This document shows positions 9,063 to 52,260 of a stretch of DNA of 64,000 nt, piece by piece; positions within the stretch are counted from its first letter, which is position 1, and the number at the start of each line of letters is the position of its first letter. Source of the DNA: Eledone cirrhosa. Its lineage: Eukaryota. The position numbers were made by a program, and so were the translations under genes. The stretch is taken from NCBI GenBank assembly GCA_964016885.1, contig OZ024746.1, positions 50,592,001 to 50,656,000 on the forward strand, in the 5' to 3' direction. The notes beneath the pieces are model-generated. The model saw nothing but the letters and a program-made list of their open reading frames with translations, was not told where the DNA came from and did no database searches.

Positions 9063-10066
9063 TGCCAATTCATAATAATGATATGTATATACAAGGTGTT
9101 GTCTCGAAAATCGAGTTGAGGTGTGAGTGTATTAGAATTTATAGATTAATTTGAAACTCAACATAAAGAAACTGCCAAAACAGTAAAATACCATCAATGG
9201 CGACGTTGGGTAAAGACTTACACTTATATATATCACACTCTTAGTACAACCCCAAAGTACATACTGGAGACTACGCATCGAGTGCTCACTTTGGTGAACC
9301 AAGATTAACTTGACGTTACTATCCCAAAACTAATATACCAGGTGGTGCTCTTATGTTAGGCATTGCTTTGGCCAATACTGGCCGAAACAAAATTAAATGA
9401 AAGATGTCATGTCTGAGAATATCAGAAACCTGTAGAAGCTCAAAGATTCTCAGGAATAAATCCGAGCATTTATTAAAATTAAATTAAAAGTCCATTGACA
9501 TATATATATATATATATATAAAATAAACATATCAAACATTGGCGGAGGGTGGGGGGTAATTTGTAAAGAGTGTAAACACACATAGTTACGGAGTATTTAT
9601 ATTCAATAATGATTAATCATTATTCATGGTTCTCGTTAAATTTTTTATATGCTACCTCCGTAACTATGTGTGTTTACACTCTTATAAATTATCTCCTGTC
9701 AATGTTTGATATGTTTATTTTATATATATATATGTCAATCGGCTTTTAATTTATGTGTGTGTGTATACAGGCAAAATTCCGAATTTTAACGAAATTCCGA
9801 ATTTTAACGAAAATATAACGAATTTTTCAGTATAATTAAATTTTTTTCAATCCCTGCCCATATGTCCGATGTGTTAGGTCGCGATCTCGTTATAACAAAT
9901 ATTTCATTACAACAAATTTTTTTATACCGTGAATTTCATTATAACCGAATTTCACTGTACATATAATATATATATGTGTGTGTGTGTGTGTATTTATTTG
10001 TTATGGCTAAGTAGTGAGTCTTGTTTACTCTGGAGTTTCACCTGCGCACTCACAGGATCATCAGAT

Positions 10067-10121
10067 AGTCTTATCTGATGATCCTGTGTGTGCACAGGTG
10101 AAACTCCAGAGTAACAAGATT
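10067..10121 (+). ncRNA. Type I hammerhead ribozyme motif (with an inverted copy at about 10014-10066)
   Basis: Stem I AGTCTTAT/ACAAGATT; CTGATGA 10075-81; stem II CCTGTG-TGTG-CACAGG; GAAA 10100-03; stem III CTC-CA-GAG; GUA site, cleavage after 10113. Folded by eye. Confidence 0.8.
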
Positions 10122-10373
10122 CACTACTTAGCTATAATAAATGAACATTTACATTTTACTTCGGTATTGAGTACCCCTTTCTCTCGTCCGTCAACTACAT
10201 ACAGATACACACACACACACACACACACACACACAAATTTAAATAAAATTAAAATAATATTTGGAAGCTTAACATTGCATGCAAGATTAAAAGTGCCAAG
10301 GTAATAGGAGTTATAGAGAATAAAAGACTGAGAAAAGAGTGAGGACGATAGAATTTTACCTTGGTTATTTTAT

Positions 10374-10420
10374 TGATCTCAAATATTTTCGGACTTAACC
10401 CATTGTCAAGAGAGGATCAG
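10374..10420 (-). ncRNA. Minimal hammerhead motif with U3-A8 core
   Basis: Minus strand: TGATCCTCTC-TTGACAA-TGGGTTAAGTCC-GAAA-ATAT-TT-GAGATCAATAAA; stem I TCTC/GAGA; palindromic stem III. Confidence 0.55.
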
Positions 10421-10538
10421 TGTATAGGTATTTAAAGAGCAATCGGAGAATTGTTGTTGTTTGGCTGGCAGATTCAATTTAAATGTATGAAAAAGACGTT
10501 AAAATTTATTCTCTATAACTCCTATTACCTTGGCACTT

Positions 10539-10753
10539 TTAACCCCTTAGCATTTACATTACTCTATATTTACTATTATATTTTCATGGTAAAAGGTTTA
10601 CTATCATAATATCGAATCTATGCGATTTTGATGTTATTTATTTTGAGTACAATACTTTAACATCAGTATGAGCAGCCAGATACAGCCAGTTCGAACAGAA
10701 AGAGGTGAGAGAATTCAGGCCAGATATGGCCGGTTTAAATGCCAAAGGGTTAA
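10539..10753. mobile_element. piggyBac-type MITE (~200 bp); other copies near 13263, 14511, 14870, 15450, 17060, 20271-22895 (interrupted), 36904-37113, 47230, 51408-51801
   Basis: Family consensus TTAA-CCCTTTAGCATT ... AATGCTAAAGGG-TTAA: TTAA duplication with CCC/GGG termini. Confidence 0.88.
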
Positions 10754-48584: not shown

Positions 48585-51390
48585 AACACAAACTCTAGAT
48601 ACACTCACACACATATATACAAACTCTAGATACACTCATACACATATATATATATATAAACTCTACATACACTCATACACACATATACAAACTCTAGATA
48701 TACTCACAACACACATATACAAACTCTAGATACACTCACACACATATATACATACTCACAACACACACACACATATATACAAACTCTAGATACGCTCACA
48801 CATATATATACAAACTCTAGATACACTCACACATATATATACAAACTCTAGATACACACACATATATATATATATACAAACTCTAGATACACTCACACAT
48901 ACATATACAATCTCTAGATACACTCATACACACATATATACAAACTCTAGATACACACACATCATCATCATCATCATCAGGTTTAGCGTCCGTGTTCCAC
49001 GCTTGCATGGGTTTGGACGGGGGTTTTCCCACTTGAGGCAAGAGTGGTTGTCTTGCTCGCATAGGACTGTCTGGCGGGTTTTCTACAGTTGGATGCCCTT
49101 CCTAACACCAACCACATTTACAGTGTGGGGCTGGGAGGTTTTTACCGTGTTGCCTACACGGCCACATTACAGCGTGGACTGTCTGGCTGGTTTTCTACAG
49201 CTGGATGCCCTTCCTAACACCAACCACATTTACAGTGTGGGGCTGGGAGGTTTTTACCGTGTTGCCTACACGGCCACATTTACAGCGTGGACTGTGTGTT
49301 TTTTGTCGTGACACCTACACGATCTCATTTGTTTCGGCCTGGATGTTGTGGGACCAACATAACTTTACATTGAAAGGGGCGGTGTGGGTGGGGTGGAGGT
49401 GGTGGGACGGGGGTGTGTTTTGATAGAGGTGCCTACTGACTGTAGTAGGTTTTTACTTTGTATTTAGGTAAGGCGGGTCTTCTCTATTACTGAGTACCGC
49501 CAAAGGTCTCGGTCCAGTGACATTGTCTTGGAGAGGTGTAAGCGTGTGAGGTCGGAATTTATCAGCTCGTCCCATGTTTTTCTGGGTCTGCCTACTCCGT
49601 GGCTACCGTCTATCTTTATTGCCCTGCACTTTGTTATACAGCTGTCGTCTTTCATGCGCATCACGTGACCGTACCAACGTAGCCTTCTCTCGAGTAAACA
49701 ACATCTGATCCCTCTTATTTCTAATTTTTTCCTTAGTTCGTTTATGCTTTGCCGTTCACGTATATTACTATTGCACATATATATATATATACAAACTCTA
49801 GATACACTCACACATATATATACAAACTCTAGATACACTCATACACACATATATACAATCTCTAGATACACACACATATATATATATATACAAACTCTAG
49901 ATACACTCACACATATATATACAAACTCTAGATACACTCATACACACATATATACAATCTCTAGATACACTCAGACATATATACAATCTCTAGATACACT
50001 CTCACACACATACAATCTCTAGATATACTCACACACATATACAATCTCTAGATATACTCACACACATATACAATCTCTAGATATACTCACGCACATATAC
50101 AATCTCTAGATATACTCACACACATATACAATCTCTAGTTATACTCACACACATATACAATCTCTAGATATACTCACACACATATACAATCTCTAGATAT
50201 ACTCACACACATATACAATCTCTAGATATACTCACACACATATACAATCTCTAGATATACTCACACACATATACAATCTCTAGATACACTCACACACATA
50301 TACAATCTCTAGATACACTCACACACATATACAATCTCTAGATATACTCACACACATATACAATCTCTAGATATACTCACACACATATACAATCTCTAGA
50401 TATACTCACAGACATATATACAATCTCTAGATACACTCACACACATATACAATCTCTAGATACACTCACACACATATACAATCTCTAGATATACTCACAC
50501 ACATATACAATCTCTAGATATACTCACAGACATATATACAATCTCTAGATACACTCACACACATATACAATCTCTAGATATACTCACACACATATATACA
50601 ATCTCTAGATACACTCACACACATATACAATCTCTAGATATACTCACATACATATACAATCTCTAGATATACTCACAGACATATATACAATCTCTAGATA
50701 CACTCACACACATATACAATCTCTAGATATACTCACACACATATACAATCTCTAGATATACTCACAGACATATATACAATCTCTAGATACACTCACACAC
50801 ATATACAATCTCTAGATACACTCACACACATATACAATCTCTAGATATACTCACACACATATACAATCTCTAGATACACTCACAGACATATATACAATCT
50901 CTAGATACACTCACACATATATACAATCTCTAGATACACTCACACACATATATACAATCTCTAGATACACTCACACATATATACAATCTCTAGATACACT
51001 CACATATATACAATCTCTAGATACACTCACACACATATACAATCTCTATATATACTCACACACATATACAATCTCTAGATATACTCACAGACATATATAC
51101 AATCTCTAGATACACTCACACACATATACAATCTCTAGATACACTCACACACATATACAATCTCTAGATATACTCACACACATATACAATCTCTAGATAC
51201 ACTCACAGACATATATACAATCTCTAGATACACTCACACATATATACAATCTCTAGATACACTCACACACATATATACAATCTCTAGATACACTCACACA
51301 TATATACAATCTCTAGATACACTCACACACATATATACAATCTCTAGATACACTCACATACATATACAATCTTTAGCTACACTGACACAC
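48585..51390. repeat. ~26-28-bp minisatellite (ATATACAATCTCTAGATACACTCACACAC)n interrupted by an RTE fragment
   Basis: Dozens of units each with a TCTAGA core. Confidence 0.95.
48961..49775 (-). mobile_element. RTE family A 3' fragment with a duplicated 3' UTR segment
   Basis: RRLRWYGHVMRM..VIEKTRLT and (GAT)n tail. Confidence 0.92.
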
Positions 51391-51814
51391 ATATACACAC
51401 AATTTTTTTACCCTTTAACATTTACATTACTCTATATTTACTATTGTATTTTCATGGTAAACACTTTATATCACATAATTATCTCGCATAATATCGAATC
51501 TACAAGATTTTGATATTATTTATTTAACCCTTTAGCATTTAAACTGGCCATATCCGGCCAGAATTCTCTCACCTCTTAGTGTTCACACTGGCTGTGTCCA
51601 GCCACTGATATTGATGTTAAGGTATTCTTCTCAAAATAAGTAATATAAAAATCTCATAGATTCGATATTATGTGAGATAAATAGTTGATATAGAATAATG
51701 TAAATGCTAAAGGGTTAACATTAGTATGAGCAGCCAGTTTGAACAAAAAGAGGTGGGAGAATTCTGGCCGGATACGGCTGGTTTAAATGCTAAAGTGTTA
51801 AAGTTTGAGTCAGC

Positions 51815-51965
51815 GACCTGTTACTTTACAGTTTCATCTGTGTGTTTATAGGGTTATCAGGCAGGATTTGTCTGATGACCCTATAAACATACATGTGAAT
51901 CCTCTGAGTAACAGGTCTCCGACACGATCTTAATAAAATTATTAATCTGTTGTGATATTGAGTAC
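51815..51965. mobile_element. Fold-back element with degenerate hammerheads (relative of the 10014-10174 element)
   Basis: GATTTGT-CTGATGA..GAAT..GAGTA-ACAGGTC on +; CTGATAA..GAAA-CTGTAAAG-TA on -; ATATTGAGTAC downstream. Confidence 0.65.
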
Positions 51966-52084
51966 ACATTTTCACAACCAACAACACTAAACTGATATAC
52001 TTAAACATACATTATATATAAATAGTGTACATATTTTAATATATATCGGTATACATATATTGTGTGCATATATATATATATAAA

Positions 52085-52260
52085 TTTAATATAAAAATGG
52101 CTTCTACATGACTAGAACTGTTTCATTCGAAAGAATGATGATTTCTTTTGAATGAAACTGTTTAAGTCCTGTAGAAGCCATTTCTATATTAAATTCTCTA
52201 TATACTCTTAATGTATTGAGTACTTCACTTACTTGGGTTACCCCTGATTAAACCCAGGAC
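52085..52260 (+). mobile_element. Fold-back element of the 38250-38433 family, junction inside the hammerhead core
   Basis: Mirrored AAATGGCTTCTAC..TGTTTCATTC arms; tail GTATTGAGTACTTCACTTAC..GTTACCCCTGATT matches 38250-38295 on the minus strand. Confidence 0.75.

Follow-up and report, generated by a model that had tools for sequence, protein, structure and literature searches.

Short fold-backs in the genome of Eledone cirrhosa as probable head-to-head ends of Penelope-like elements

What sets the axis of a short palindrome that lies beside a hammerhead ribozyme? The question is raised by a stretch of 64,000 nucleotides from Eledone cirrhosa (assembly GCA_964016885.1, contig OZ024746.1, positions 50,592,001 to 50,656,000; the whole stretch is called the window below), which holds several non-coding fold-backs with hammerhead-like motifs. 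An earlier note, made from the letters of this stretch, had taken them for ribozyme-defined mini-elements mobilised by Penelope-like elements (PLEs) and possibly forming an undescribed class. The analysis reported here suggests that they are pairs of the pseudo-long terminal repeats (pLTRs) of PLEs, joined head to head, and that their axis is placed by the predicted start of transcription.

Fold-backs and their parent elements

Short palindromes are present wherever they had been reported in the window. Their arms are 88% identical at 9993-10145, 97% at 23632-23989, 85% at both 38310-38439 and 52075-52204, and 72% at 51801-51931, and there is a partial palindrome at 28403-28704. The reported positions were right, but the spans were too narrow and, except at 28403, left out one-sided tails of about 60-90 nt. 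The inventory was correct as far as it went, but both fold-backs of family D (Table 1) had been overlooked. With 14 loci in 64 kb, or one per 4.6 kb, the estimate of roughly one motif per 5 kb held up well.

Alignment of genome copies reveals a single plan in families A (28 loci), B (30 loci), C (30 loci) and D. Two outward-facing arms leave an apex whose position varies from copy to copy; one arm stops at a fixed site adjoining (TA)n, and the second continues as a tail, for about 60-90 nt, to another fixed end site. The tails of A, B and D have in common a short hairpin-like motif of 11 nt, located between the two fixed 3' ends, which is a candidate binding site for the reverse transcriptase (RT). 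A motif-like end in one consensus of the Hydra clade of PLEs, given in the supplement of Craig et al. 2021 (PMC8557442), is a near match to it. The one-sided tail, the variable apex and the continuity into RT-bearing elements speak against a DNA transposon of the miniature inverted-repeat (MITE) kind. A long-read artefact is also unlikely, since the arms have diverged and contigs of four public runs contain family C, although none of the pieces listed covers the entire stretch.

How common are such structures? Evenly spaced stretches of the genome amounting to 400 kb were scored for the window's own families, which gave 50 loci, or one per 8 kb (B 13, D 16, F 11, C 4, and A, E and G 2 each). 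About 25 of these are fold-backs, those of D being counted by eye from a generic scan. Extrapolated from the 400 kb to the 3.0-Gb genome, fold-backs would be common, of the order of 10^5. Exact patterns matched 4556 and 5336 times for B and 5384 times for D2 arms beyond the wall of 5' ends described below; reversed-pattern controls gave 0. Such pattern counts are inflated by single B insertions that have been amplified as passengers in other repeats (L127-L131, L133, L138 and L139, plus L091, L095, L096, L098-L100 and L104). At one locus, a family B pLTR is interrupted by a stretch (L162:1950-2030), presumably U6 small nuclear RNA-like, that is followed by short tandem repeats; a template switch is possible.

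Where do the arms come from? Going upstream, longer B copies run into a TATA box, a microsatellite-rich region and an open reading frame (ORF) for RT and endonuclease. At 30 loci found with B endonuclease DNA, a B pLTR lies downstream on the same strand in three and inverted at the ORF break in four, and in family C the endonuclease is located about 900 bp upstream in 4 of 30 loci. An ORF with RT and, at its C-terminus, a GIY-YIG domain is joined to the terminal repeat in B, in C and in the element of the window. The layout of inverted pLTR, ORF and pLTR is complete in L359, L360 and L365, and L359 and L365 also have a tail. Judged from this sequence context, B and C are the pLTR ends of ORF-bearing PLEs. 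The proposal of an undescribed class was dropped, because B and C sequence runs upstream into promoter, 3' untranslated region and RT/endonuclease ORF; in kind both families map to PLE ends, but neither was matched to a described family. They are new families of a known kind of element, judged outside Repbase and Dfam. No firm link to an ORF was found for A, D, E, F or G, and a search for parents of family A gave six matches, none with an ORF.

The window does contain, at 29655-32963, the PLE that had been claimed, with its ORF and inverted 5' pLTR, and the analysis supports the derivation from PLEs, the presence of type I hammerheads and the architecture of inverted pLTRs. The translations of the window ORF and of the B and C parents contain a CxCX5C linker together with CxxC and CxH endonuclease motifs, which are features of the Hydra clade (Craig et al., PMC8557442). 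By eye, the RT blocks match the alignment in the supplement of that paper, and insertions are flanked by (TA)n, as preferred by this clade. The DKT motif is found in the B parents L361 and L364, the latter having RWR and not RWK; the window copy has no N-terminus. In Pfam, the window ORF and L365 were both unnamed, and 84 homologues carried no useful name. An assignment to Naiad or Neptune was abandoned on domain order and linker motif.

The axis, the predicted start and the ribozyme

Is the axis fixed by the ribozyme? In A and B the apex lies 6-9 nt upstream of the core, and here an axis at or just 5' of the hammerhead, as first described, is correct. It is not correct for family C, where the distance is 70 nt (the copy at 23647), or for family D, where the apex is inside stem II and the short ORF-less copies, or stubs, lack the CUGANGA half; in E the apex is about 25 nt upstream. 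The term 'ribozyme-defined' had to be given up, for the apex is copy-specific and tracks the predicted transcription start instead.

Evidence for such a start comes from the 5' ends of the arms. For family B, 35 arms were chosen regardless of their 5' side, after 24 incidental arms had been set aside as biased and 5 embedded arms dropped. Their ends form a wall: 19 lie at -9 to -3, 2 at -13, none at -14 to -60, 4 beyond -60 and 10 within the core. Of 86 distinct B arms with intact cores, 41 were assigned an end on the first stem I base (two of these being doubtful), 17 run on into the parent and 28 are shorter or otherwise placed. The first T of a TATA-like box, TATAAATA, stands 30 nt before stem I and hence before the wall, and TATAAATA is matched 244 times upstream of the B core (control 0). 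Parents of D have TATTTA(A/T) 29-34 nt before their wall, by eye. For family C, 21 arms were compared, the two of the window and 19 from loci not picked with the C query: 13 end at +1 or +2 of what we take to be an initiator-like site, 2 continue into the parent and 6 end downstream. Contigs of one public DNA run contain repeated joints to the equivalent of C base 23812. The wall is thus probably the start of transcription, and the axis appears to follow this predicted start and not the ribozyme.

Does the template leave a further trace at the wall? In family B, solo arms joined to (TA)n filled 271 rows, of which the first 100 were tallied by eye. They comprise 91 distinct arms, in which stem I is preceded by G 40 times, by the parental C 17 times and by A or T 34 times. 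Set against the bases that follow (AT)n tracts in the samples (G 1035, C 930), G over C in the B arms gives p=0.0016; a null from base composition (0.19) was rejected as wrong. An extra G is also found on 4 of 13 wall-ending arms of C and on about eight arms of D fold-backs, one copy having G on both arms. At full-length 5' junctions of capped L1 inserts, an extra G has been read as a copied cap (PMC11702581), and by analogy the G at the wall may have the same origin.

What, then, is the role of the hammerhead? A type I descriptor gave eight matches in the window, six of them credible and two with an implausibly long stem II; over 30 dinucleotide shuffles the average was 0.1. As far as core motifs go, the statement that both strands carry a copy is right at 10001, 23647 and 38316. 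A complete fold of three stems, however, passes the descriptor on both strands at 23647 only and on one strand at 10001 and 38316; at 51815 and 52085 neither arm has an intact core. The solo motifs were equally mixed. The descriptor accepts the one at 25167 and, with a CAGAAGA core variant found throughout its family, the one at 17591, but rejects those at 29179 and 10374; the one at 25600, of the same family as 17591, is not matched. Of this family, F, 12 copies were aligned, and nearly all that cover the motif have a complete three-stem fold in which U4 of the core is replaced by A (CAGAAGA) and the cut site would be CUU, a natural core variant and predicted ribozyme with sites at 17611 and 25600 in the window. 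In the 3' pLTR of the window PLE, a hammerhead-like motif with a CCGATGA core, a stem I of 3 bp and a long stem II can be read by eye; it fails the descriptor. An Rfam scan of the window had no hammerhead among the matches listed (150 of 229), all of which were microRNA-type hairpins below gathering scores.

Family B has a full type I fold with a stem I of 6-7 bp, a stem II of U.U plus 3 bp under a variable tetraloop, a stem III of 4 bp and a predicted GUA site. A pairing with a GUU or GUC cut and no stem I was wrong, as GUA with the 4-bp stem III fits, and a type III or viroid-like reading with paired ribozymes was rejected, stem I being unable to close at the apex. Stem covariation is present across genome copies: stem I closes with G-C in some subfamilies and with A-U in others (end pairs, n=29: G-C 11, A-U 9, A.C 4, G.U 3, other 2; Fisher p=0.02, in copies that are related). 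Stem III is retained in 37 of 46 copies, and loop II has 12 variants. The transcript of a whole fold-back is predicted to form a rod of -61 to -111 kcal/mol without a hammerhead. For single arms the minimum-energy fold is not the hammerhead either (z about 0 to -0.9), a result that is uninformative for such motifs. Because stem I covaries between subfamilies and the whole fold-back RNA folds without a hammerhead, the ribozyme looks selected in the parents and not in the stubs. Genomic arms extend across the predicted cut site, so that the template RNA would not have been cut at the hammerhead.

Tails, priming and rival explanations

How many priming events lie behind one fold-back? Exactly one tail is present in 62 of 68 B fold-backs, none in 6 and two in 0, and the two outer ends are fixed, one with a tail and one without. 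Among the 62, the arm that is longer at its 5' side is the tailed one in 25 and the tail-less one in 22, and in the remaining 15 the two reach about equally far. Where the tail-less arm is the longer, each arm has sequence absent from its partner and therefore neither was copied from the other, unless central sequence was lost afterwards; two priming events are the probable source. The arms of a C fold-back differ from each other by 0-0.08, often by 0-0.03, and from the median copy by 0.04-0.10, a likeness that fits a single source locus or RNA for each insertion. Tail and arm asymmetry resemble what an anole PLE does in vitro, where both strands are cut and extended, two internal start sites lie around the tail and uncleaved RNA is used (Frangieh et al. 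2024, PMC11167929).

The reading that we prefer, with a probability of about 0.7, is that a fold-back is a head-to-head pair of PLE pLTR ends, derived from two target-primed complementary DNAs (cDNAs) of a capped sense RNA. Both cut strands of the (TA)n target would prime reverse transcription near the front of this RNA, both cDNAs would extend to, or close to, its 5' cap, and the two would be joined head to head to leave the fold-back. Most stubs would then be dead on arrival. A number of points weigh against this reading. Start and cap are deduced from DNA only, and family C has no TATA box at -30. D2 solo arms have 16 G and 10 C among 84 distinct arms (the first 100 of 661 rows), which is not significant, and many of the Gs at fold-back junctions could derive from the partner arm. 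Template-free addition of C by the RT would yield the same G; cap copying and template-free addition alike mark an RNA 5' end. Family A has a single degenerate upstream copy (L125) and no ORF link, and PLE ORFs lie nearby, in inverted orientation, at 2 of 30 D loci, which makes for a tentative link. One B copy, without an anchor and outside the 68, has two tails (L037), at most 30 of the 68 belong to loci that had been selected because they resemble the copy in the window, and central deletions after insertion could produce the 22 asymmetric cases.

Several other schemes deserve consideration. A tentative one, rather unlikely in our judgement, is that the stubs are trapped strong-stop cDNAs, with the pLTR working like the retroviral U3-R-U5 and the fold-backs arising as failed jumps from both target ends. 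[quoted passage not shown] The stretch from start to cut (about 45 nt in B and D, about 125 in C) would act as a terminal redundancy, which a cDNA begun at either of two tail sites would have to jump, on reaching the cap, to copy the ORF. Family D fits this scheme well: its predicted start splits the ribozyme, and only the 3' copy could cut. Could a single priming suffice? One primed cDNA might reach the RNA 5' end, snap back and copy itself, to be inserted as a hairpin, with deletions trimming the apex afterwards. R2 proteins are known to show snap-back once the cDNA is full-length (PMC11371274), and the mutual closeness of arms in one C fold-back, the agreement of B loop variants on both arms and microhomology at the apices are what it would leave. 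It is nevertheless improbable, given the 22 of 62 one-tailed B fold-backs in which each arm has sequence missing from the other, a tail-less end that is fixed and not variable, and the extra G that both arms can carry, with a spacer (L136).

On a view close to that of the earlier note, the stubs would be self-renewing, non-autonomous mini-retroelements with their own transcription, copied by PLE proteins. Stubs do outnumber long copies, and none of about 40 unselected D arms reaches the upstream half-core. Family C, with no TATA box at -30, might have an internal promoter like that of Drosophila Penelope (PMC2377424), which could persist in each full arm, and flanking (TA)n could serve solo arms as a TATA box. 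However, apices are copy-specific, B stubs have no TATA box, long copies too contain each of the main B loop variants (no stub-only B variant was seen in small samples), and the fold-back RNA hides the ribozyme in its predicted rod, all of which makes renewal of this kind quite improbable. Published work explains palindromes of this sort by self-priming on antisense RNA (PMC3846280). There is very little to commend this explanation here, or stalling of the RT at a folded hammerhead. The wall does coincide with the 5' edge of stem I in A and B; in C, by contrast, it is 70 nt from the core and in D inside stem II, and the spacing of the TATA box and the extra G argue for a sense RNA's 5' end.

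The window and known systems

The features of the window that belong to these families are collected in Table 1. Other copies of family E have a minimal hammerhead with a palindromic stem III. Further palindromes, without a hammerhead core, are found at 4914-5124, 9480-9753, 41447-41506, 51523-51802 and 28819-29013; the one at 4914-5124 consists of a dispersed repeat that is very common, two of whose ends lie inverted around (TA)n.

Table 1. PLE-like features of the window (positions in the window)
Feature	Position	Strand	Remarks
Family A fold-back	9993-10207	+	Inverted arm; apex at 10065-10074; type I hammerhead on the forward arm (core 10075, GUA cut predicted after 10113), then tail (shared motif 10164-10174)
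Family C fold-back	23552-23980	-	Tail at 23552-23639, followed by arms at 23640-23808 and 23812-23980; each strand with a hammerhead, cores 23739 (minus) and 23881 (plus); G absent from parent at 23809 (minus strand), directly 5' of predicted start 23808
Family B fold-back	38248-38439	-	Tail 38248-38309; cores 38370 (minus) and 38378 (plus); predicted start 38371 (first base of stem I), the beginning of the plus arm
Family B fold-back with tail	52075-52262	+	Both arms end within core; no intact hammerhead
A-like fold-back, old, with tail	51801-51990	+	Both cores mutated; no further copy among loci compared
Family E fold-back	28403-28704	+	Left arm without core; right arm without stem III and 3' part of stem I
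Family D fold-back	39817-40022 (about)	+	Apex within stem II; no CUGANGA half-core; shared tail motif at 39966
Family D fold-back, old, partial tail	5210-5370 (about)	+	
Family F solo PLE-like end	17569-17760	+	Hammerhead fold, CAGAAGA core variant (core 17611)
Family F, second copy	25575-25750 (about)	-	
Family G solo PLE-like end	25126-25300	-	Type I hammerhead (core 25220), palindromic stem III
Inverted 5' pLTR of ORF-bearing PLE	29655-30148	-	97% to 3' pLTR
PLE ORF, 5'-truncated	30178-32163	+	RT (YRDD), CxCX5C linker, GIY-YIG-type endonuclease; in-frame stop at 31903
3' pLTR	32280-32963	+	Dispersed repeat, common in the genome, inserted at 32676-32867
Shared tail motif	10164, 38285, 39966, 51957, 52213		

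Exons of a protein kinase, presumably of an MLK-like gene, were recognised at 37459-37968 and 57165-58925 (+) by a PK_Tyr_Ser-Thr match, and the PLE-derived elements probably lie in introns of this gene. A remnant with a zf-RVT match at 18402-19433 (+) is taken by us to be from a restriction-like endonuclease retroelement. Fragments of RT-bearing long interspersed nuclear elements are located at 20485-22429, 24190-25047 and 52691-54010. A 72-bp tandem array (59562-60341), whose minus strand has an open frame, and a tandem duplication of 647 bp (1371-3140) are also present in the window.

How do the fold-backs compare with what has been described before? As an element class, the stubs are not new: inverted pLTRs, tails, solo pLTRs, TATA and initiator sites in pLTRs, and hammerhead pairs on opposite strands are already in print. 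The Hydra clade, which includes Hydra-1_Obim (Craig et al. 2021, PMC8557442), shares the order of RT followed by GIY-YIG, DKT (in two B parents), YRDD, (TA)n targets, type I hammerheads, and the linker and endonuclease motifs. The hammerhead listed for Hydra-1_Obim, however, matches none of families A to G by eye, tails are about 60-90 nt here and usually 30-40 nt there, and the parts of that paper compared describe neither ORF-less fold-back stubs nor their axis. Penelope from Adineta (PMC3846280) has the same head-to-head inverted pLTR, one-sided tail and solo pLTRs, and its pLTR likewise bears a promoter, with TATA about 20 bp before the initiator. The palindromes of Adineta were explained by antisense self-priming, whereas here the wall and the extra G indicate a capped sense template.

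Poseidon of the anole (PMC11167929) shows the same cutting and extension of two strands, with two RT starts bounding the tail; it belongs to another clade, and analysis of genomic fold-backs or of the cap is absent from the parts of that paper compared. Opposite-strand hammerhead pairs reported from metazoans (Cervera and de la Pena 2014, PMC4209133) share a U3-A8 core variant and an unpaired base at the foot of stem II. They are 100-700 bp apart and were read as truncated PLEs, whereas in the present families the cores are 10-140 bp apart, parents have been identified and the axis has been mapped. The non-LTR (long terminal repeat) retrozymes of animals (bioRxiv 10.64898/2026.07.22.740005) are likewise non-coding, PLE-derived and equipped with a type I hammerhead, but form head-to-tail tandem arrays, in contrast to the head-to-head pairs or solo ends described here, which often have no intact ribozyme. 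The main text of a recent octopus repeat annotation (PMC13282606) contains neither 'ribozyme' nor 'palindrom'. No published mapping of PLE fold-back axes to a capped start was found in a literature search that had subscription papers outside its scope.

What is new, then, are the families and a mechanistic clue, namely the promoter spacing, the extra G and a predicted start at three different places relative to the ribozyme. The origin of tandem and inverted ends in PLEs has been an open question (PMC8557442, PMC11167929), on which the stubs offer natural records of end formation, of the order of 10^5 in number, with exact predicted starts in three families. They would also explain a large class of short palindromes that finders of hairpins, MITEs and microRNAs may mislabel. 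Compared with the published antisense self-priming, they favour a capped sense template with two primings.

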